Below, piece by piece: positions 27,758 through 38,330 of a stretch of DNA of 64,000 bases. The DNA is from an uncultured Lachnospiraceae bacterium. Lineage in GTDB: Bacteria > Bacillota > Clostridia > Lachnospirales > Lachnospiraceae. Made by a program: the position numbers and the translations under genes. Location: contig UQLY01000013.1 of the NCBI GenBank assembly GCA_900542015.1, forward strand, positions 7,961-71,960, read 5' to 3'. Under the pieces are notes generated by a model. That model saw only the letters and a list, made by a program, of their open reading frames with translations, was not told where the DNA came from and did not search any database. Numbering within the stretch: the stretch's first letter is position 1; each line of letters opens with the position of its first letter.

Positions 27758-28951
27758 ATGGATAAATTAGAGGAGCTTCTTTCGCAAATATTAAATGAAA
27801 ACCTGACGCAGATCGTGATCAGCGGACCTAAGAAAAGCGACGCTGCAAAATCGGAGCATTTTGTCAGGAAAATTCAGATCCGTCCGGTGTTATTAAAGGG
27901 ACAGCTCTTATTTCAGGCGTCAAGCTACACAAAAAAGCAGGTCTTTCATGAAAATCTCTCAAGGCAGCAGGCAATAGACTATATCGCAAAGGCAATGGGA
28001 GATTATAAACAGTTGCAAGCCTATGGAGACGGGATAAAGGCAGACGTGCTGTCCGGGAAAAAGGGCAATCTGTCGATCAAAAGCGAGATAACGCCGCCGG
28101 CGGGCAAGGAAGGGGAAAGCGGGGAGCGAAAGGCGTCTCTGTCCCATAACCGGGAAAAGGAATCGATTCTGCCCAAGGATGAGCCGGTGCCTTTTTTGGT
28201 AGATTTGGGAGTACAGACCAAAGAAGGCAGGATCGTTGCCGGGAAATATGATAAATTCCGCCAGATCAACCGCTTTTTGGAGTTTATCAGGGATATTTTG
28301 CCTGTTCTGCCCAAGGATGAGCCGGTTTCCATTCTGGATTTTGGCTGCGGGAAAAGCTATCTGACCTTTGCCATGTATTATTACCTGAGGATCATGAACG
28401 GGTTGGACGTGGATATTGTAGGGCTGGATTTGAAGGAAGACGTGATTGAAAAATGCAACCGGCTGAAGGAAAGCTATGGATATGACCATCTGCATTTTCT
28501 CGTAGGGGATATCGGACAGTACGAAGGCAAGTCCCGGGTGGATATGGTGGTAACGCTTCATGCCTGCGATACGGCGACGGATTATGCTTTGGCAAAGGCG
28601 GTAAAGTGGAATGCGAAAGTTATTTTGTCCGTTCCCTGCTGTCAGCACGAATTAAACGGACAAATATCCCAGGAGCTGTTGCAGCCGGTATTGAAATACG
28701 GACTTTTGAAGGAACGGATTTCCGCGCTTTTGACGGACGGCATCAGAGCCTCTCTGCTGGAAGAGGCGGGATATGACGTGCAGGTTTTGGAATTTATCGA
28801 TATGGAGCATACGCCCAAAAATATTTTGCTGCGGTGCGTTAAAAATACCCGTATGCGGGCGAAAAACAGCGCGCGGCTTGATGAAATGATTGATTTTTTG
28901 AACGGGAAGCCGACGCTTCAAAAGTTATTGAAAGAACAACAGGGTGAATAA
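27758..28951 (+). CDS. Class I SAM-dependent methyltransferase with N-terminal extension (Methyltransf_32-like)
   Basis: Motif I ILDFGCGKSYL, motif IV-like LHACDTATD, and a conserved CCQHE. The stop overlaps the start of the next gene by 8 nt. Confidence 0.7.
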   Translation: MDKLEELLSQILNENLTQIVISGPKKSDAAKSEHFVRKIQIRPVLLKGQLLFQASSYTKKQVFHENLSRQQAIDYIAKAMGDYKQLQAYGDGIKADVLSGKKGNLSIKSEITPPAGKEGESGERKASLSHNREKESILPKDEPVPFLVDLGVQTKEGRIVAGKYDKFRQINRFLEFIRDILPVLPKDEPVSILDFGCGKSYLTFAMYYYLRIMNGLDVDIVGLDLKEDVIEKCNRLKESYGYDHLHFLVGDIGQYEGKSRVDMVVTLHACDTATDYALAKAVKWNAKVILSVPCCQHELNGQISQELLQPVLKYGLLKERISALLTDGIRASLLEEAGYDVQVLEFIDMEHTPKNILLRCVKNTRMRAKNSARLDEMIDFLNGKPTLQKLLKEQQGE

Positions 28952-31490
28952 GGATATTATGAAAAAGGGATTGATAAAAGGAATTGTCTGTTTCGTAACG
29001 TTTATGGTGTCGCTGTTTGTGATCAGCGCCGTTATGAACAGAGGAAATACGGATATTACCATGGAAATGAGCGCGGCGTCCTATCCGCTTGTGTATATCA
29101 ATTATGAAGGAGAACATATTAACTGCCTGCACGGATACAGTAACGAAATGGACGTTTCGTTTATGCGGGATACGGTAACGCCTTTGGGAGAGGACCGGAA
29201 AATCTCCCTGTATATTGATAAATTTAACAGCGATATTGCCTCTCTGTCTTTTGAGGTGCGCTCCACGGACGGAGAGAGGCTGATTGAAAATTCCGAGATC
29301 TTTAATTATAAGGAAAAGGACGCGGGAATTTCCGCGGACGTGGTTATTAAGGATCTGATCGAACAGGACACGGAATATGAGTTTATCGTTCTTGTGGAGA
29401 CGGCGGAAGGAAAGACGCTGCGGTATTATACCCGCATTATTCAAAGAAGCGAAAATCATGCGGGAGAAGAAATCCGTTTTGTACAGGATTTCCATACGAA
29501 AACCTTTGACAAAGATGCGGCAAGGGATTTGACAAAATATCTGGAGACCGATGAAACCGGGGATAACACCTCGTACAGTTATGTGAATATCCACAGCAGT
29601 TTTTCCCAGCTTACCTGGGGGGATTTGAAGGTGAAAAAAATCTCGGAACCGCAGATTTACGTCACGGAATTTTTTTCACAGACGATGCGTGTGAAAATGA
29701 CCTATTTTGTATCGGTAACGACCGAAGAGGGCGAAAAAAGATGCAGAGTGGAGGAATTTTACAGACTCCGTTACGGAACGCAGAGAATTTATCTGTTGGA
29801 TTTTGAGAGAACCATGAACGAAGTGTTTGAAATGGATATAGAGGCGTTTAATAAAAATAAGCTGGATCTGGGTATCCGAAGCGCTGATGTGGAAATGATG
29901 GAGAGCGAGGATGGCGGTGTTTTTGCCTTTGTATCGGAGAACAGACTGTTTTGCTACAATTCCACAAGCAACCGATTCGCGCAGCTGTTTGGTTTTTATG
30001 AAAAGGATCACGAGGACGAAAGGACCTTTTATGACCAGAATGATATTCGCATTTTGAACGTGGACGAGACGGGAAACGTACAGTTTATGGTATACGGTTA
30101 TATGAACCGCGGCACCCACGAGGGAAATATGGGCATTGCGGTCTATTTCTATAACAGCGTGCTCAATACCATTGAGGAGGAAGTGTTTATTCCTTATGAC
30201 AAATCCTATGCGGTGCTTGCCAGCGATTTGCAGCAACTGACTTATCTTAACAGCAGCAACGAGCTGTTCCTCTATCTGGGCGGCAGTATCTTTTGCGTGC
30301 ACCTCGAGGAAAACAGCTACGAGACGGTCGCGGAAAACCTTCCTCAGGGGAGTCTCAAGGTATCCCAATCGAACCGGATGGCGGTATGGCCGGAAGGAGA
30401 GGATTTAAACAGGAGCACAAGTCTGGCGTTGATGAATTTAAACAGCCGCAGTATTTCTACGGTAGAGGCGGGAAGCGGAAATTATATCCGCCCCCTGGGA
30501 TTTATGGAGGAAGATTTGATTTACGGGCTTGTCAGGGCGTCGGATATCTATACGGACAATGCGGGCAGCATTTTAATGCCGATGTTTCGCATCAGTATTT
30601 GCAGCGGTTCGGACAATACGGTTACGATGAACTATGAAAAGTCCGGAATTTATGTGACGGATATCAGTATTGAGGACAATCAGATCAATCTGGAACGGGT
30701 TAGCAGAGATGCGGAGAGCGGGACCTATGTTTCCGTCGTTTCGGATCAGATCATGAGTGCGGAAACCGGATTAGCGGGTGAAAACGTGGTGGAATTGGCG
30801 GCGACCGAGGCTAGGGAAACGATTGTGCAGATTGCGGCAAAGGGAACCATTGAGACAAAGTCACTGAAATTTTTGACGCCGAAAGAGGTCATGTATGAAG
30901 GCGGGCATGAGATGGTGTTCGGTTATCCTGAGCAGACGGAGCATAAGTATTATATTTACGGGGCGGACGGAATAACCGGAGTGTATTCCAGTCCCTCGGA
31001 AGCGATTATCTCGGCGGACGAAACGGCGGGAACAGTCATCAACGAGGCGGGCGATTATGTGTGGGTCAAAGGAAACCGCGTAACCCGCAATCAGATAATG
31101 AAGATCGAAGGAACCGCAGCGGATGAGGAAAATTCCTCCCTTGCCGTATGCCTGAATACGATGCTTGGGGCGGAAGGCATTACCCGCAACAGCCAGTATA
31201 TGCTGGACCAGGGGCAATCCGTACTCTCCATTCTGGAAGAGCAGATGCCGGAAGCGGAAATACTGGATTTAAGCGGATGCAGCCTCGATTCCGTACTCTA
31301 CTACGTCAACAGGGACATTCCGGTCATGGCGATCTTAAAGGATAAAAGCGCGGTGCTGATCGTAGGCTTTAACGAACTGAATACGGTCATTATGGACCCT
31401 GCAACCGGCACGATTTATAAAAAGGGAATGAATGATTCGACGCAGTGGTTCCAGGAGAATGGGAATCAGTTTATAGCGTATATACGATAA
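28944..31490 (+). CDS. Large membrane-anchored protein (848 aa) with C-terminal peptidase-C39-like domain
   Basis: N-terminal TM helix (GIVCFVTFMVSLFVISAV), ~700 aa of extracytoplasmic sequence, and a C-terminal ~130 aa with a C39-like Cys (SSLAVCLNTMLGAEG). Translationally coupled to the methyltransferase. Confidence 0.6.
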   Translation: MNKDIMKKGLIKGIVCFVTFMVSLFVISAVMNRGNTDITMEMSAASYPLVYINYEGEHINCLHGYSNEMDVSFMRDTVTPLGEDRKISLYIDKFNSDIASLSFEVRSTDGERLIENSEIFNYKEKDAGISADVVIKDLIEQDTEYEFIVLVETAEGKTLRYYTRIIQRSENHAGEEIRFVQDFHTKTFDKDAARDLTKYLETDETGDNTSYSYVNIHSSFSQLTWGDLKVKKISEPQIYVTEFFSQTMRVKMTYFVSVTTEEGEKRCRVEEFYRLRYGTQRIYLLDFERTMNEVFEMDIEAFNKNKLDLGIRSADVEMMESEDGGVFAFVSENRLFCYNSTSNRFAQLFGFYEKDHEDERTFYDQNDIRILNVDETGNVQFMVYGYMNRGTHEGNMGIAVYFYNSVLNTIEEEVFIPYDKSYAVLASDLQQLTYLNSSNELFLYLGGSIFCVHLEENSYETVAENLPQGSLKVSQSNRMAVWPEGEDLNRSTSLALMNLNSRSISTVEAGSGNYIRPLGFMEEDLIYGLVRASDIYTDNAGSILMPMFRISICSGSDNTVTMNYEKSGIYVTDISIEDNQINLERVSRDAESGTYVSVVSDQIMSAETGLAGENVVELAATEARETIVQIAAKGTIETKSLKFLTPKEVMYEGGHEMVFGYPEQTEHKYYIYGADGITGVYSSPSEAIISADETAGTVINEAGDYVWVKGNRVTRNQIMKIEGTAADEENSSLAVCLNTMLGAEGITRNSQYMLDQGQSVLSILEEQMPEAEILDLSGCSLDSVLYYVNRDIPVMAILKDKSAVLIVGFNELNTVIMDPATGTIYKKGMNDSTQWFQENGNQFIAYIR

Positions 31491-32457: not shown

Positions 32458-32525
32458 ATTTTTTTCTCCTTTAGTTTTGTTTTTCAGTCCGCGCCGCTAT
32501 GCGCGAACCGAGGTCAGGAAGGTCT
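32458..32525 (-). promoter_or_regulatory. Candidate preQ1-I riboswitch in the queT 5' leader
   Basis: Minus-strand RNA ...GGUUCGCGCAUAGCGGCGCGGACUGAAAAACAAAACUAAAGGAGaaaaaaauAUG has a 5-bp GC hairpin followed by an A-rich tail ending CUAAAGGAG. This resembles the preQ1-I tail AAAAAACUAAGGA, which sequesters the SD. queT is a classic preQ1-riboswitch target, but the loop is shorter than consensus. Confidence 0.35.
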
Positions 32526-32758
32526 CGAACTGACCGTTTTTCCATGAGAGCGTTTTGCAGCTCTATGGTTTTGCAACGTTGCCAGTGTAGCATAAAGGGA
32601 GCAAAAATGCAATGATAAAATAATTTGTCGGAGTTTGGCGGGGAATGGCGGTTAAAACCGATTAAATCTTTATAAAACCGGGGGCAAAGCGATTGACTTT
32701 TGCGATTCCGTATTTTACCATGAAACATAATAAGAAGTTTGTGAACGGAGGGAAAAGC

Positions 32759-33414: not shown

Positions 33415-34599
33415 TTACACTTCCCCTTTTTTATATCTTGCCAGCAAATTCTGAATCCTGTCGCTGGGATTGAGCAGATCGCTGATGGAAGCGTCATGAT
33501 TGAGCGTGTCGATAATATAGGCGATATATTTGCTCATATCGCAGTCAATGTAATAAGGTCTTTCCAAAAGCTCCGGAGTCTGGTAAATCAGATTGGTGGT
33601 CAGGATATCGTCGATAAAGCCTTCTTCATATGCCTGATCAAATTTCGCAAGTCCGTTTGTAAACAGTCCGAAGGTCGCACAGATGAAAATGCGGTTTGCT
33701 TTGCGCTTCTTTAGCGCCGCCGCGACTTCCAATACGCTTTCGCCGGAAGAGATCATATCGTCCACGACGATAATATCCTTGCCTTCCACGCTGGAGCCCA
33801 GAAATTCATGGGCGACGATGGGATTGCGACCGTCTACAATCTGCGTGTAGTCCCGGCGTTTATAAAACATACCCATATCCAGTCCTAATACGTTGGCGAT
33901 ATAAATAGCACGGCTCATACCGCCTTCATCGGGGCTGACAACCATCATATGATCTGAATCAATCGTCAGATCCCTGACATGGGAAAGAAGCCCTTTGATA
34001 AACTGGTAGGCGGGCTGAACGGTTTCAAAACCGTTTAAGGGAATTGCGTTTTGTACCCGGGCGTCATGAGCGTCAAAGGTAATAATGTTGTCCACGCCCA
34101 TATTGACAAGCTCCTGCAGGGCGATTGCACAGTCAAGAGACTCGCGGGTACTTCTTTTATGCTGCCTGCTTTCATAAAGAAACGGCATAATAACGGTAAT
34201 TCGTCTTGCCTTTCCGCCGACAGCGGCGATAATACGCTTTAAATCCTGGAAATGATCGTCAGGAGACATATGATTGGGATGTCCGCATAGGGAATAGGTC
34301 AAAGAATAGTTTGCTACGTCTACCAACAGATAGAGATCGGTGCCTCTGACCGATTCTAAAATGACGCCTTTTGCTTCGCCGGAACCGAAGCGGGGTACTT
34401 TTGCTTTGATTAAATAGGAATCGCGCTGGTAGCCTTTGAAGGCAAGGCTGTCGCTGTGGGCGTTTTCACGTTCCGTTCTCCAGTCAACCAGATAATTGTT
34501 GACCTTTTCTCCGAGAGCCTTACAGCCTTCCAGAGAGATAATTCCCAAAGAGCCTACGGGAATGGTTTCCAGGTTTCTCATTTCTTCACGTTTGGACAT
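33415..34599 (-). CDS. prs: Ribose-phosphate pyrophosphokinase (PRPP synthetase, long form)
   Basis: 394 aa with the PRPP-binding loop IIVVDDMISSGESV and a typical Prs fold. Confidence 0.9.
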   Translation of the reverse strand: MSKREEMRNLETIPVGSLGIISLEGCKALGEKVNNYLVDWRTERENAHSDSLAFKGYQRDSYLIKAKVPRFGSGEAKGVILESVRGTDLYLLVDVANYSLTYSLCGHPNHMSPDDHFQDLKRIIAAVGGKARRITVIMPFLYESRQHKRSTRESLDCAIALQELVNMGVDNIITFDAHDARVQNAIPLNGFETVQPAYQFIKGLLSHVRDLTIDSDHMMVVSPDEGGMSRAIYIANVLGLDMGMFYKRRDYTQIVDGRNPIVAHEFLGSSVEGKDIIVVDDMISSGESVLEVAAALKKRKANRIFICATFGLFTNGLAKFDQAYEEGFIDDILTTNLIYQTPELLERPYYIDCDMSKYIAYIIDTLNHDASISDLLNPSDRIQNLLARYKKGEV

Positions 34600-34611
34600 G
34601 ATGAAAGATCC

Positions 34612-35586
34612 TCACTTTCTCTTATCTTGAAATTTCTTTAGCATTCGAATATCTCGTCCCTCAAATTTACAAAAAGTGAAATGACTGCTGACACGGGAAA
34701 AAATTCTTTCCGAATAGCGTCTGTTCAGTTCATCCAAAGTCAGATTCGTAGAAATCAGGGTGGCTTTCTTTAGCAGATCCCGGTTGTTCAGGCAGGTAAA
34801 TAAATCCGCCTTTACTCTTTCGCTGATGGCTTCGGTGCCCAGATCATCGATAATCAGAAGGTCGCATTGGTTAATATCCTCCAGGAAGGAGAAATAAGCG
34901 TCCTTATCGTCCTGGAAGCGATAATCCACAAAATTTTTGAAAAATTTATCCGCGCTGTAATAGGTAACCGAATGTCCCTGTTCCATCAATTCCTTTGCGA
35001 TGCAGCAGGATAGAAAAGTTTTACCAGTACCAACATTACCATAAAATACAAGATTTTGGTAGTCCGAGTTGAAATTTCCCGTAAACTTTTTGCTGACGTT
35101 TAAGGCGTTGGCATAGGAAGCGGCTTCCGCTTCGTTGAAATAATCAAAAGAAAGGGTATCAAAATTCTGTACCGTGATCAGATCAAAAATGCCGGACTGC
35201 TCAAATAAAAGTCTGGTCTGCGCCTCGATAAAACAACTGCATTTGGCGCGGCTTTCGGGAAGAAAGCCCGTATCATGGCACTTTTGGCAGGTATAAATGG
35301 GAGCGAGATAATCCTTCGGATAACCCGCGTCCGTCAAAATACGGTCCCTTTTGTCCATCAGAAGCTCCTCTTTGGTCTTAGCGGCGGTAAAAGCGTCCGT
35401 ATCTTTGTCCAGGTTCGCCTGCATACGCTGCATACGCAGGCTACGCAGCTCGTCCTCCGTATCAAAATAGGCGGGGAGCTTTTGGCGGATCTCCTCGGTG
35501 CGTTCCACCTGAATCCTGTGATTTTCCAGGCGGATATTATCGTATTTTTCCATAATGGAATCAAATTGCTTGTTGCTCAAACCCAT
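34612..35586 (-). CDS. Helicase loader, DnaC/DnaI family AAA+ ATPase
   Basis: Walker A GNVGTGKTFL, Walker B LLIIDDLGTE, and an N-terminal Cys-cluster (CQKCHDTGF...CSCF) like the DnaI zinc module. Confidence 0.8.
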   Translation of the reverse strand: MGLSNKQFDSIMEKYDNIRLENHRIQVERTEEIRQKLPAYFDTEDELRSLRMQRMQANLDKDTDAFTAAKTKEELLMDKRDRILTDAGYPKDYLAPIYTCQKCHDTGFLPESRAKCSCFIEAQTRLLFEQSGIFDLITVQNFDTLSFDYFNEAEAASYANALNVSKKFTGNFNSDYQNLVFYGNVGTGKTFLSCCIAKELMEQGHSVTYYSADKFFKNFVDYRFQDDKDAYFSFLEDINQCDLLIIDDLGTEAISERVKADLFTCLNNRDLLKKATLISTNLTLDELNRRYSERIFSRVSSHFTFCKFEGRDIRMLKKFQDKRK

Positions 35587-35612
35587 AAGCGGTACCTCAT
35601 GTGAATATGTAT

Positions 35613-36689
35613 CTAGTTGCTCAGTAACATTTTTTCCAGCTCGTCATAATCGTAAGAACGCTGTTGAAAGTCGTTGAAGCCGCCGTCCTTTTTGGAAGGA
35701 GAGGCAGGAGCCTTCTGATGAGAAGTATCCAGGGCTTCGATATCCCTGAGGTTTTTGACATTGGCGTCATGCCATTTGGTCAGGATCGCGTTGGTATATT
35801 GGAAACGGTTGTGATCCGTGGCAAGCACGGCACGTTCGCACGCTTTGAGCACGATGTCGGTGGAAAAGCCGAACTGCCCGAACCATTTTTTGATATAGGC
35901 AACCTCCGGTTCCGTAGGCTCGGCGTTTTTCCCGAGGGCGCGCATAACGCTGTATACCTGTTTATCGTATTTGGAAGTCCGCAGCTTTGCCTGGCGGACA
36001 GTGGATATATGTGCCTCCGCCCAGTCAACGGCTACCTTTTCCATATAGGAAAACTGTTTTTTGCCCCTGCCTACACAGTATTGGATCAGATAATCGATCA
36101 GATCGGTGGAAAAGCCCAGCGTATCATAGATAAAAAGCAGGGTCTCCAGATCGCTGCGGGACAACAGCCTGCCCGTATATTGTTCGGCGATAAAAATAAT
36201 CTGAGAGGTCTCGTTGTTGCTGCGAAAGGCTGCAAGATCGTCTGCGGAAAAAGACGTCCTGACCGGAGCCGTATTTTTGGAAACAGCAGGCTTTGGCGTT
36301 TCCTTTGCAGGCTTGGGATTCTCCGCGGCAAGCTTGGGAGAAAAGGACACAATTTCAGCCTTGGAGCTCATGGACGGAAAGGGGAGCACATGCACCGCCT
36401 TCAGATTCTGCTCGCCGTCATAATCGAGAGAAAGGAGCTTTAACTTTTCCCAGTAACGCAGCGCGCGCAGTACGTCCTTTTCCGTATAATTAAAGCGGTC
36501 GGCAATATCCGAAATGCTAAAGGACAGCTTCGCTCCCGTCATGCGGATCAGATACAGATAGATTTTAATTTGAGCATCATTGGCGGATACCATATATTCG
36601 TCGATAAACTGATTGGATATAATGGTGGCGTCCTGTCCCTGCTCCTGATAAATTGTTAAATGAGACATCTTATCACCCGGTTTATTCAT
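35613..36689 (-). CDS. DnaD-domain replication initiation/membrane attachment protein (B. subtilis DnaB/DnaD-like)
   Basis: 358 aa with a C-terminal DnaD-like domain (...FGFSTDIVLKACERAVLATDHNRFQYTNAILTKWHDANV). Forms an operon with the loader gene. Confidence 0.75.
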   Translation of the reverse strand: MNKPGDKMSHLTIYQEQGQDATIISNQFIDEYMVSANDAQIKIYLYLIRMTGAKLSFSISDIADRFNYTEKDVLRALRYWEKLKLLSLDYDGEQNLKAVHVLPFPSMSSKAEIVSFSPKLAAENPKPAKETPKPAVSKNTAPVRTSFSADDLAAFRSNNETSQIIFIAEQYTGRLLSRSDLETLLFIYDTLGFSTDLIDYLIQYCVGRGKKQFSYMEKVAVDWAEAHISTVRQAKLRTSKYDKQVYSVMRALGKNAEPTEPEVAYIKKWFGQFGFSTDIVLKACERAVLATDHNRFQYTNAILTKWHDANVKNLRDIEALDTSHQKAPASPSKKDGGFNDFQQRSYDYDELEKMLLSN

Positions 36690-36791
36690 TCTTTAAAGCA
36701 AGTGAAAGTATAGCATAATCGGAGCAAAAATGAAATAGTAAATTTTTCGCGAACCCGCATAAAACCTAGATTTTCACAACTTTGTTTAAAT

Positions 36792-36954
36792 TGTGGATAA
36801 TGTGGATATCAGGTGGACATAATTTAAAAAAATTGTCGATACCACAGGTTGGGCAGGGGTTTGTCAAGAAAATAAAAATAATTTATGTAAATTAAAATAT
36901 CCACAACAAAAAGTGGGTAATTTTCACAGGTTTGTTGTGGATATTGTGGATAAT
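36792..36954. promoter_or_regulatory. Cluster of DnaA boxes (2 perfect TGTGGATAA, 3 single-mismatch) upstream of the dnaD-like/dnaI-like operon
   Basis: Perfect boxes at 36792-36800 and 36946-36954. One-mismatch boxes at 36801-36809, 36897-36905 (opposite orientation) and 36937-36945. Confidence 0.6.
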
Positions 36955-38330
36955 TATTTTTTTAACAGGTTTTCGCCGATATTTACAACGTCTCCGGCTC
37001 CCATAGTTATCAACAGGTCCCCGGGGGAATAATTTTTTTTCAAAAAAGCTTCGATTTCTTCAAAGGTGGGAAAATAATCGCATGGCGTTCCCAGCTTTTG
37101 TATTTCCGTCTGCAGGGTCCCCGAGCTGATTCCCAGAGTGTCGGTTTCCCTTGCGGCATAAATGTCGGCTAAGACCACATGGTCCGCGGCTGACAGCGCC
37201 CTGGCAAATTCGGGAAGGAAGGCGCGGGTCCTCGTGTAAGTATGGGGCTGGAACACGCACCACAGCTTTTTGTGGGGATAGTGCGCTGCGGCTGACAGCG
37301 TCGAAGCGATCTCCGTAGGGTGGTGTGCATAATCGTCGATGACAGTAACGCCGTCCACCGTGCCCTTTAACTGAAAGCGCCTATCCGTGCCACTGAAATG
37401 ATGCAGAGCGTCTTTTGAGACTTCCCGGGGAATGCCCAGGATATCGGAAAGCGCGATTGCCGCGAGGGAATTGTATACATTGTGTTCGCCGGGAACGCCC
37501 AGCGATATTTTTTCTTTTTTGCCGTCGTGGCAAAGTACATAGGAAGGTCTCGCCAATTCATCGTATGCAATCGCCTCCGGATAATAATCGCAGGCGCTTT
37601 CTTTGCCGTAGGTAACGACGCGGCAGTCCAGTCCGTTTGTGATTTCCTGCAGGGAAGGAATATCCCCGTTGATAATTAAAGTGCCGTCTTTGGGAAGCAA
37701 AGATGCAAATTTTTGGAAAGAATGACGGATGTCCTGAATATCTTTAAAAAAGTCCAAGTGGTCTTCCTCAATATTTAAGATGAGGCTGATCTTCGGATAA
37801 AAGCTTAAAAAGCTGTTGGTATATTCGCATGCTTCGGTAACGAATAAGCCGGACGCGCCTACACGGATATTGCCGTGAATGGAAGGCAGTATTCCGCCGA
37901 TGGATAAAGTAGGGTCCGCATCCGCGGCAAGGAGGATTTCGCTGATCATGGAAGTCGTGGTCGTCTTGCCGTGGGTGCCGCTGACGGCGATGGGAGTGTC
38001 GTAGTTACGCATGATCTGTCCCAGCAGTTCTGCTCTGGTCAGGCAGGGGATGCCGAGATCCCTTGCGGCGCAAAGCTCGGGATTGTCATCGTGGATCGCT
38101 GCCGTATAGACGACGGCGTCGGTATCTTTGGTAATATTGCCGGCGGACTGTCCGTAAATGACGGAAGCTCCTTTTTCCTCAAGATGGATTGTCAGAGCGC
38201 TTTGTCTGGCGTCGGAACCGGAAATGACAAAGCCCCGGTCCAGCAAAACTTCGGCGAGACCGCTCATACTGATACCGCCGATGCCGATAAAGTGGACATG
38301 AATTGGTTTGTTAAAATTGATATGGTACAT
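36954..38330 (-). CDS. murC: UDP-N-acetylmuramate--L-alanine ligase
   Basis: 458-aa Mur ligase with N-terminal GIGGISMSGLAEVL and Mur ligase middle and C-terminal domains. Confidence 0.95.
   Translation of the reverse strand: MYHINFNKPIHVHFIGIGGISMSGLAEVLLDRGFVISGSDARQSALTIHLEEKGASVIYGQSAGNITKDTDAVVYTAAIHDDNPELCAARDLGIPCLTRAELLGQIMRNYDTPIAVSGTHGKTTTTSMISEILLAADADPTLSIGGILPSIHGNIRVGASGLFVTEACEYTNSFLSFYPKISLILNIEEDHLDFFKDIQDIRHSFQKFASLLPKDGTLIINGDIPSLQEITNGLDCRVVTYGKESACDYYPEAIAYDELARPSYVLCHDGKKEKISLGVPGEHNVYNSLAAIALSDILGIPREVSKDALHHFSGTDRRFQLKGTVDGVTVIDDYAHHPTEIASTLSAAAHYPHKKLWCVFQPHTYTRTRAFLPEFARALSAADHVVLADIYAARETDTLGISSGTLQTEIQKLGTPCDYFPTFEEIEAFLKKNYSPGDLLITMGAGDVVNIGENLLKK

Follow-up and report, generated by a model that had tools for sequence, protein, structure and literature searches.

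The intergenic region between murC and a helicase-loading operon in the analysed window (the whole 64-kb stretch of DNA) carries a dense cluster of DnaA boxes, and comparison of this region among related genomes makes it likely that the cluster is a conserved DnaA-binding region outside the origin which controls the helicase co-loader/loader operon in Lachnospiraceae. Part of the cluster overlaps a predicted transcription terminator of murC.

Gene context and DnaA boxes

Upstream of the cluster lies murC (36954-38330, minus strand; TIGR01082, 463 bits), and its stop codon touches the first box. Downstream, profile matches identified a gene for a DnaD-domain replication-initiation protein or helicase co-loader with two DnaB_2 matches (35613-36689, minus strand), followed after 26 bp by the gene for a DnaC/DnaI-like AAA+ helicase loader (34612-35586, minus strand; NCBIfam PRK06835, 307 bits). 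The true start of the DnaD-domain gene is probably M8 (ATG at 36668-36666), where the family alignment begins, and a Shine-Dalgarno sequence, GGGTGA, is found ahead of it at 36678-36673. The initial annotation had described a "dnaD-like/dnaI-like" operon; the profile matches agree with these gene identities, but the description overlooked the architecture of the first product. Both Pfam DnaB_2 (PF07261) and TIGR01446 match this protein in two stretches, which gives it the architecture of Bacillus subtilis DnaB, an N-terminal domain and then two DnaD-like C-terminal domains, rather than that of DnaD. Small ORFs of 21-39 codons in the intergenic region were rejected because they lie in DNA that is variable between species, and an Rfam search over 36000-37600 with a permissive E-value returned only sub-threshold chance matches.

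We scored as a DnaA box any 9-mer differing from TTATCCACA at no more than one position, and as a weak box any 9-mer with two mismatches. The box scan of both strands of the window found five boxes at 36792-36953, in a span of 162 bp, and these are the same five listed in the initial annotation (two perfect and three with one mismatch, in both orientations, within 165 bp). Distal box 1 (36945-36953, minus strand, TTATCCACA, perfect) starts immediately behind the murC stop codon, and distal box 2 (36936-36944, minus strand, ATATCCACA, one mismatch) follows it head-to-tail with zero spacer. The inverted box 3 (36897-36905, plus strand, ATATCCACA) reads TGTGGATAT in the gene orientation; boxes 2 and 3 lie in the 5' and 3' arms, respectively, of a hairpin described below. 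The proximal array consists of a one-mismatch unit (36801-36809, minus strand, ATATCCACA) and a perfect unit (36792-36800, minus strand, TTATCCACA), again head-to-tail with no spacer, and a decayed third unit (36783-36791, minus strand, ATTTAAACA). Weak boxes with two mismatches are located between the two sub-clusters (36834-36842, minus strand, GTATCGACA) and in the hairpin loop (36912-36920, minus strand, TTACCCACT). Note that a sixth one-mismatch box, within murC (37007-37015, plus strand), codes for the LLIT part of LLITMGAGD, a conserved motif, and its conservation probably reflects the encoded protein.

Conservation among related loci

The same cluster was found in about 150 related loci, including those of Agathobacter rectalis (annotated) and Eisenbergiella tayi, in every case with the order murC, boxes, DnaD-domain gene, AAA+ loader gene and prs. 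Across 80 species-level Lachnospiraceae genomes, the box density was 15.3/kb in the 400 bp upstream of the DnaD-domain gene, compared with 0.45/kb elsewhere, and the order and orientation of the boxes were the same. Of 71 metagenome loci at a greater distance, with DnaD-like proteins of 35-51% identity, 69 had at least three boxes. The upstream gene was murC in all loci with enough flank (77/77), and the position of box 1 adjoining the murC stop codon was kept in 77 related loci. The box positions are invariant while the adjacent intergenic bases vary, and the alignments indicate that the boxes are under strong purifying selection as a DnaA-box set.

The cluster was not found upstream of the homologous operon in Clostridioides difficile, Monoglobus and Vescimonas. 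In other Clostridia, whose genomes lack the cluster, 2-37 kb separate the homologous operon from dnaA. These comparisons suggest that the cluster is specific to the family Lachnospiraceae, a point that the initial annotation had overlooked. The absence from C. difficile, Monoglobus and Vescimonas implies that the wiring was gained or lost within Clostridia, and that the link between the boxes and the operon is not a general requirement. A literature search of limited coverage gave no relevant pairing of 'DnaA box' with Lachnospiraceae.

Promoter and proposed role of the boxes

The cluster had been placed directly upstream of the promoter region of the DnaD-domain gene, and the promoter prediction bears this out. 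A predicted sigma-A promoter with an extended -10 element, TATGcTATACT (36707-36717, minus strand), and a poor -35 element lies about 70 bp past the proximal array. Since the hits of a promoter scanner were all on the plus strand, which is wrong for the DnaD-domain operon, they were rejected and cross-species conservation was used instead: the pattern TRTGnTATAAT located the promoter in 72 of 79 sequences, and the family consensus is TRTGcTATAAT. The proximal array of the relatives contains two to four tandem units, and the gap from the last proximal box to the -10 element falls into three classes (67-71, 76-80 and 87-89 bp) separated by a step of one 9-bp unit. This fixed distance from the array to the -10 element is the pattern of a transcriptional operator; together with the purifying selection on the boxes, it is consistent in silico with the DnaA-dependent control or titration that the initial annotation had proposed. 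Nevertheless, the geometry is unlike that of a classic repressor, as no box overlaps the -35 element, the -10 element or the transcribed leader, and every box is situated farther upstream than about -80, counted from the predicted start. Further conserved motifs, including palindromes, are present between the proximal array and the promoter, and given these motifs the direct regulator may be another factor.

In the role that we propose, DnaA would occupy the high-affinity boxes, and the output of the operon promoter would follow the amount of active DnaA. We favor repression, which would provide negative feedback on helicase-loading capacity, because an extended -10 element close to the consensus should need no activator, and because DnaA reportedly represses dnaB of B. 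subtilis. The alternative direction may be sda-type activation, since all of the boxes are upstream of about -80. The strong, clustered sites would also sequester some DnaA, as the DnaA-box clusters (DBCs) of B. subtilis do, and the murC terminator would keep murC transcription out of the proximal operator and the promoter.

Alternatively, the cluster could serve purely as a sink for DnaA, similar in kind to datA or a B. subtilis DBC, which titrates or inactivates DnaA and thereby times initiation, with no role in transcription of the neighboring operon. Dense and strong boxes beyond oriC are in line with this explanation, and so is the variable spacing (approximately 87 to 165 bp) that separates the distal pair from the proximal array, which fits the case that site number alone matters. 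In B. subtilis, initiation occurs early once six clusters are deleted, and re-insertion of a single cluster at any site partly rescues this (PMC3245932). However, the cluster stays at one promoter in about 150 loci, and the fixed phase of the array to the -10 element is needless for a mere sink. We thus regard a pure sink as unlikely, although titration and regulation are compatible with each other.

The predicted murC terminator and its overlap with the distal boxes

The inverted repeat, RNA folding, covariation and a strand-specific T-run together point to a terminator-like hairpin of murC (36888-36945, minus strand), which begins 8 nt past the murC stop codon. The stem is a perfect 15-bp helix (36931-36945 pairing with 36896-36910), directly followed by the T-rich tail TTTTAATTT at 36888-36895, and the RNA hairpin of the window has a dG of -20 kcal/mol (z = -5.7). 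Its length is 46-49 nt in nearly all loci, and the loop sequence is not conserved among the relatives. In 54 aligned sequences, columns 17-24, which belong to box 2, are invariant. Eight pairs of the lower stem never vary, whereas six to seven pairs of the upper stem covary; for example, one upper pair is GC in 19 sequences, UA in 19 and AU in 8. Paired cells amounted to 89.5%, compared with 74.7% in shuffled alignments (0 of 500 shuffles reached the observed value) and 35-59% with slid partners. The covariation score was 0.34, against 0.11 after shuffling and 0.09-0.21 with the partners slid, with changes on both sides in eight pairs, and RNAalifold gave the same helix. The signal is specific to the murC-sense strand: the mean T content of the tail is 5.6/8 in the sense direction versus 2.9/8 in the antisense direction, and G-U pairs number 35 in the murC-sense RNA versus 15 in the antisense RNA. 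In the most distant loci, the inverted box is degraded to TGTGGATtt while the hairpin pairing and the T-run are kept. A consensus terminator scanner found nothing here, but this scanner accepts only loops of 3-8 nt.

The covarying upper stem and the T-run led us to predict that the hairpin is the intrinsic (Rho-independent) terminator of murC. The list of five boxes in the initial annotation stands, but it overlooked that two of the five build the stem of this putative terminator. For this reason, RNA structure may be part of why the inverted box exists; in fact, the terminator alone can explain it. The overlap appears unusual in that box 2 and the inverted box 3 supply the unvarying lower part of the predicted terminator stem.

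A tentative and rather improbable extension is that the overlap itself is functional. In this case, the distal boxes would lie in the transcribed 3' end of murC and each murC transcript would sweep DnaA off them ahead of termination, the palindrome would also serve as a DnaA-box hairpin in single-stranded DNA, and transcription of murC, a gene of cell-wall synthesis, or a head-on replication fork would be coupled to DnaA occupancy and hence to the expression of the helicase-loading genes. If this were true, one sequence would be both a terminator stem and an initiator-binding site, that is, a composite RNA/DNA element.

A different explanation of the same palindrome places the hairpin at the DNA level, where a stem containing the box, formed in single-stranded DNA such as the lagging-strand template or as a cruciform, would recruit DnaA and helicase loaders, like the A-site of the ABC primosome. 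The base of the stem is an exact DnaA-box duplex, the element adjoins the loader genes, and the length of the hairpin is held more tightly than a terminator usually needs; moreover, DnaA-box hairpins load the helicase of Escherichia coli in vitro (PMC6127211). Against this, the T-run is specific to the murC-sense strand, as is the G-U pair excess, the position is exactly where murC needs a terminator, and the distant loci lose the quality of the 3'-arm box but retain the pairing and the T-run. A DNA-level hairpin is therefore very unlikely in our judgment, and we retain the reading of the hairpin as a predicted RNA terminator.

Identity of the boxes, origin and chance

The TCCACA repeats might be sites of another transcription factor, with no more than a resemblance to DnaA boxes, and the additional conserved palindromes in the region could be taken in this direction. 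However, the 9-mers TTATCCACA, ATATCCACA, TTTTCCACA and TTGTCCACA match the canonical Firmicute box over all nine positions and in both orientations. DnaA boxes vary mainly at positions 1 and 3, and the variation among the related loci is found mainly at the same two box positions. We hence give little credence to this possibility.

A replication origin, or a part of one, was also considered, be it oriC, another origin besides it, or one brought in by an integrated phage or plasmid with its DnaD- and DnaC-like genes adjacent. Many DnaA boxes are located beside genes for an initiator and a loader, 32 nt between the sub-clusters are about 90% A+T, and the pairing of DnaD-like and DnaC-like genes is frequent in phage replication modules. 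On the other hand, the GC skew is positive over all 64 kb (+0.1 to +0.25 on either side of the cluster) and shows no switch, and neither dnaA nor dnaN was found in the window. The search for dnaA was a tblastn with a B. subtilis DnaA sequence, which is 86.5% identical over its full length to DnaA of Priestia megaterium, and its sole match in the window was to the loader's AAA+ core; given the limits of the window, dnaA is more than 27-35 kb away from the cluster. The missing skew switch and the absence of dnaA place the cluster outside oriC, in agreement with the initial annotation. In addition, neither the sequence nor the length of the A+T-rich spacer is conserved in the relatives. An origin on a mobile element was rejected on the basis of synteny and weak matches: across about 150 loci the region is flanked by murC, prs and glgC and mobile-element genes are absent, the highest identity to a phage or plasmid is 39% at most, and the matching plasmid records carry housekeeping genes. 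An origin of any of these kinds is highly improbable.

With at most two mismatches allowed, the intergenic region contains seven boxes, compared with 1.1 expected from the window-wide density, and the box total in the window is 30, compared with 14.3 +/- 3.8 in shuffled sequences. The rest of the window has at most two boxes per 165-bp span, and so do the related loci beyond the cluster region (501 kb scanned). Simulated 64-kb sequences reached at most three boxes per 165 bp, both in 300 Markov runs matched to the window's composition and in 300 runs with the AT-rich intergenic composition. Although the G+C content of the region between murC and the DnaD-domain gene is only 31%, a chance build-up of box-like 9-mers in AT-rich intergenic DNA, which the initial annotation had named as the outcome that would undo its proposal, can be set aside almost entirely, because none of the 600 simulations, those with the region's own composition included, reached five boxes per 165 bp and because the box positions are kept over about 150 loci.

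Implications and comparison with known systems

To our knowledge, the control of replication in Clostridia has barely been studied except in C. difficile. The Lachnospiraceae belong to the most abundant bacteria of the gut. A positionally fixed, family-wide DnaA operator, as suggested by the alignments, would predict a direct feedback from the initiator to helicase-loading capacity. The region of about 260 bp is a compact DNA target for work in cultured A. rectalis and E. tayi. It also offers a natural case of an intrinsic terminator stem constrained as a putative protein-binding site, and such an overlap allows the evolution of joint constraints on RNA structure and DNA binding to be addressed.

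In E. coli, datA and DARS1/2 are DnaA-box clusters outside the origin which modulate the pool of active DnaA; they require IHF or Fis sites and a specific box geometry, and their target is the nucleotide state of DnaA. No such features are recognizable in the Lachnospiraceae cluster, which has no sequence relationship with these loci. The distal hairpin resembles the E. coli A-site of the ABC primosome (Masai 1990; Carr and Kaguni 2002; as described in PMC6127211) in being a stem-loop with a DnaA box as the stem. The A-site functions in single-stranded form during the replication of plasmids and phages, whereas the Lachnospiraceae element bears a strand-specific signature of an RNA terminator. 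Among Clostridia, C. difficile CD3653/CD3654, encoding a DnaD-domain protein followed by a helicase loader (PMC7561715), is the gene pair homologous to the Lachnospiraceae operon. Its 124-bp upstream region is free of boxes at the one-mismatch limit, and a different gene, in divergent orientation, lies beyond it.

The DBCs of B. subtilis are usually proximal to oriC. Their neighbors (sda, ywlC, yydA, vpr, trmE and gcp) differ from those of the Lachnospiraceae cluster, but the two are alike in being intergenic, dense groups of boxes that allow no more than one mismatch and lie outside oriC (Ishikawa 2007, PMC2533591; PMC3245932). DnaA-box clusters beyond oriC regulate adjacent genes and restrain initiation in B. 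subtilis (Okumura 2012, PMC3245932), and the Lachnospiraceae cluster, too, would be expected to adjoin a DnaA-regulated gene, to retain DnaA stably and to restrain initiation.

A close counterpart concerns the dnaB(-dnaI) genes of B. subtilis, in which a co-loader gene likewise precedes the gene for an AAA+ loader and DnaA boxes lie in the promoter region. dnaB is described as negatively regulated through DnaA at its promoter (Goranov et al. 2005, as summarized in PMC2533591), and it is outside the eight stable DnaA-binding regions of B. subtilis (PMC2533591). Unlike dnaB, the Lachnospiraceae operon has a dense cluster with perfect boxes, and murC upstream, the overlap with the putative terminator and the zero-spacer tandem arrays are specific to Lachnospiraceae. 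In both cases, however, active DnaA would be tied to helicase-loading capacity.

Box density in the window

The window contained 30 sites matching the canonical DnaA-binding site TTATCCACA with at most one mismatch (boxes), compared with 14.3 +/- 3.8 in dinucleotide shuffles. The five boxes of the initial annotation, in both orientations, were confirmed just as it described them, at 36792-36953: two perfect boxes and three with one mismatch, of which four lie on the minus strand and the other on the plus strand. The same annotation had considered that 9-mers of this quality might be equally dense by chance in AT-rich intergenic DNA. This explanation fails, because the fullest 165-bp span held 3 boxes both across 300 first-order Markov simulations of the window and across 300 simulated 64-kb sequences with the intergenic region's own composition (31% G+C), and 2 boxes both in the remainder of the window and in 501 kb of related loci with the cluster region left out. 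A chance origin of the cluster was thus excluded by the simulations and the counts in related loci. A sixth box (37007-37015), in the last 60 bp of murC, codes for LLIT of the conserved C-terminal LLITMGAGD motif, so that MurC protein coding appears to account for it sufficiently. At 36834-36842 and 36912-36920 there are two boxes of lower quality, each with two mismatches.

The cluster lies between murC (36954-38330; TIGR01082) and the genes for a DnaD-domain protein (35613-36689; two DnaB_2/DnaD domains), a DnaC/DnaI-like AAA+ protein, referred to here as the loader (34612-35586; PRK06835), and PRPP synthetase (prs, 33415-34599; PRK06827), all on the minus strand. The domain plan of the DnaD-domain protein is of the B. 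subtilis DnaB type rather than that of DnaD. The longest open reading frame of its gene begins at ATG 36689; since homologues align only from residue 8 onwards, and ATG 36668 has a Shine-Dalgarno sequence upstream of it (GGGTGA, 36678-36673), the true start is probably 36668, which would make the 358-aa model of public assemblies 7 codons too long. At E <= 0.001, neither Pfam nor NCBIfam gave a match for two open reading frames in the window, of 848 aa (28944-31490, plus strand) and 85 aa (32471-32728, minus strand).

Conservation of the cluster

Relatives of the DnaD-domain protein number in the thousands, and those named are from Lachnospiraceae. Scanning one genome per GTDB species gave 80 loci (46-87% protein identity, almost all Lachnospiraceae), including Eisenbergiella tayi and genomes assigned to Kineothrix, Acetatifactor, Roseburia and Robinsoniella. 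The cluster was present with identical layout in every one of these loci that had enough upstream sequence, the box density was 15.3 per kb in the 400 bp upstream versus 0.45 per kb elsewhere, and murC was the upstream gene in 77 of 77 assessable loci. In a second set of 80 metagenome loci, which was seeded with representatives 36-39% identical to the DnaD-domain protein of the window and whose proteins are 35-51% identical to it, murC was again upstream and at least three boxes were found in 69 of 71 loci (background, 0.50 per kb). The annotated record of Agathobacter rectalis (Lachnospiraceae) has glgC, murC, the DnaD-domain gene, an ATP-binding gene and prs arranged alike, and carries the two box pairs together with the hairpin and -10 element described below. 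In the annotated records of C. difficile, Monoglobus and Vescimonas, no box was found upstream of the homologous gene pair (CD3653/CD3654 in C. difficile; PMC7561715). This distribution indicates, at the sequence level, that the trait is wide within Lachnospiraceae but not general to Clostridia.

In these other Clostridia the homologous operon is a near neighbour of dnaA. The gene order in the Monoglobus record (L163) is dnaA-mnmE-dnaD-like-loader, with the box-free region upstream of the operon, and the distance from dnaA to the homologous operon is about 27 kb in C. difficile (L162, NZ_CP149720.1) and about 37 kb in Vescimonas (L164, NZ_AP023416.1). These three PLSDB 'plasmid' records, with dnaA and other housekeeping genes, look like pieces of chromosomes.

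Direction of replication

The initial annotation had stated that dnaA is absent and that the site is not oriC, and both statements held. A tblastn search of the window with B. subtilis DnaA (a query that shares 86.5% identity with Priestia megaterium DnaA along its full length) matched only the AAA+ core of the loader, and the GC skew, +0.1 to +0.25 at both ends, kept its sign throughout. These results show that the cluster is not oriC and that transcription of the operon runs head-on to replication. An origin at the cluster, either oriC or that of a mobile element, is excluded or very unlikely. In the window, the lagging strand carries the whole block from murC to prs (33415-38330, minus strand). 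Of 128 related loci (among L001-L160), 92% had negative GC skew when read in the direction of the genes, which suggests that the head-on orientation is conserved across relatives, the skew of loci of 6-7 kb being only suggestive. Conserved head-on orientation of essential replication genes is unusual for Firmicutes.

Distal pair and predicted terminator hairpin

In gene orientation (the minus strand of the window), the distal pair consists of TTATCCACA and then ATATCCACA, head-to-tail with zero spacer, and in essentially every locus its first box directly abuts the murC stop codon. About 29 nt beyond the pair is an inverted box, TGTGGATAT, followed by a T-run, and the second distal box pairs with the inverted box to form the base of a hairpin. 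The total length is 46-49 nt in nearly all loci, with a median RNA folding energy of -18.6 kcal/mol; the window hairpin has a perfect 15-bp stem (dG -20 kcal/mol, z = -5.7). An alignment of 54 sequences showed that the eight lower stem pairs were invariant, but that the next six or seven covaried strongly (one pair is GC in 19, UA in 19 and AU in 8 sequences), and this argues that the lower-stem sequence itself, beyond mere pairing, is under selection. Paired cells amounted to 89.5%, versus 74.7% in shuffles (0 of 500 as high) and 35-59% with the partners slid, and RNAalifold recovered the same helix. The T-run was confined to the murC-sense strand (5.6 of 8 T versus 2.9 of 8), and 35 wobble pairs were usable only in the sense RNA versus 15 only in the antisense RNA. 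We thus predict that the hairpin is the intrinsic terminator of murC. In the remotest loci, TGTGGATtt is what remains of the 3' arm, with pairing and T-run kept, so the inverted 'box' may be at least partly the complement required by the terminator.

An attractive alternative is that the hairpin acts at the DNA level, in the manner of the ABC-primosome A-site of E. coli (PMC6127211). This would suit a stem that contains an exact box duplex and a length so tightly fixed, although the strand-specific terminator signature argues against it as the main function.

The closest relatives of the window share TTTACATAA just past the hairpin and TTATGTG(T/G/C)ACC just upstream of the proximal array (loci L001-L009, L036, L069, L079 and L080; 36881-36889 and 36813-36823, respectively, in the window). 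The two form an imperfect inverted repeat; with at least three mismatches, neither is a DnaA box.

Proximal array and predicted promoter

A variable spacer of about 87-165 bp separates the distal pair from the proximal array, which across loci comprises 2-4 head-to-tail 9-mers with zero spacer (ATATCCACA, TTATCCACA and a decayed third unit in the window). Downstream, a conserved TRTGnTATAAT is predicted to be an extended -10 element with the Gram-positive -16 motif (TATGCTATACT, 36717-36707, minus strand, in the window); the -35 position is poor. Measured from the last good box, the distance to this -10 hexamer fell into classes of 67-71, 76-80 and 87-89 bp, and because these differ by one 9-bp unit, the end of the whole array appears to be fixed about 70 bp upstream of the predicted -10. 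In one metagenome locus (L103, about 1990-2480), about four tandem copies of a unit of about 118 bp (..cagcggctggatgttcatcaccggatctgtgcagtgacagggaagctgcggaactttaaacagctgcttccctgttactgcactgatgaatattcagacgccgt..) are inserted in the 5' leader, between promoter and dnaD-like start codon, and the boxes are displaced more than 450 bp upstream.

Between array and promoter, a LexA (Cheo-box)-like palindrome, GAAC-N4-GTTC, was found in 16 of 79 sequences (78 related Lachnospiraceae loci and the window), about 45-60 bp upstream of the -10, where about 0.005 per region is expected from background. All 16 matches are in related loci (L011, L012, L013, L019, L026, L028, L031, L032, L033, L037, L043, L052, L056, L057, L061 and L076) and none in the window, which suggests that SOS control may have been added to the same operon in some lineages. 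Many relatives also have the palindrome GCAAACCC-N11-13-GGGTTTGC between array and promoter together with a near-palindrome, GGCA(A/G)(A/T)TTGCC, over the -35 position (36735-36775 in the window; same position in L010, L017, L018, L049, L054, L073 and L074). The window copies, CGGGTTCGCG and GCGAAAAATTTAC, are degenerate. These palindromes may be sites for another factor.

Proposed mechanism

From this anatomy and its conservation, we propose that DnaA would bind both box groups and control the operon promoter. Of the two directions of control, repression is favoured, since the near-consensus extended -10 should need no activator and since the dnaB gene of B. subtilis is reported to be under negative control by DnaA bound at its promoter (PMC2533591). 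Activation by DnaA, as at sda, is possible given that every box is placed upstream of about -80. So strong a cluster would also keep DnaA from oriC, as B. subtilis DnaA-box clusters both hold DnaA from oriC and regulate their neighbours (PMC3245932), and the two roles are compatible. The terminator would stop murC transcription from entering the proximal operator and promoter. Because the termination point of murC lies beyond the distal pair and the inverted box, its transcription has to traverse both; that the overlap of boxes and terminator links DnaA occupancy to transcription of murC or to the passage of the fork seems to us rather improbable. The match to the canonical box extends over all nine positions, which makes it unlikely that the TCCACA repeats are bound by another factor.

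Comparison with known systems

Judged from its sequence, the cluster is real and highly conserved, and the DnaA control or titration proposed initially is a sensible interpretation. In the literature searched we found no account of DnaA boxes from Lachnospiraceae, or of boxes placed between murC and a dnaD-like gene, and we know of no description of a terminator stem built from DnaA boxes or of zero-spacer tandem arrays phased to a promoter family-wide. The locus is a good experimental target, and its principle would not surprise a specialist. At the sequence level, the locus matches its nearest known counterparts, both from B. subtilis, in density, non-origin position and promoter association: the dnaB promoter, which is regulated by DnaA, and the DnaA-box clusters outside the origin.
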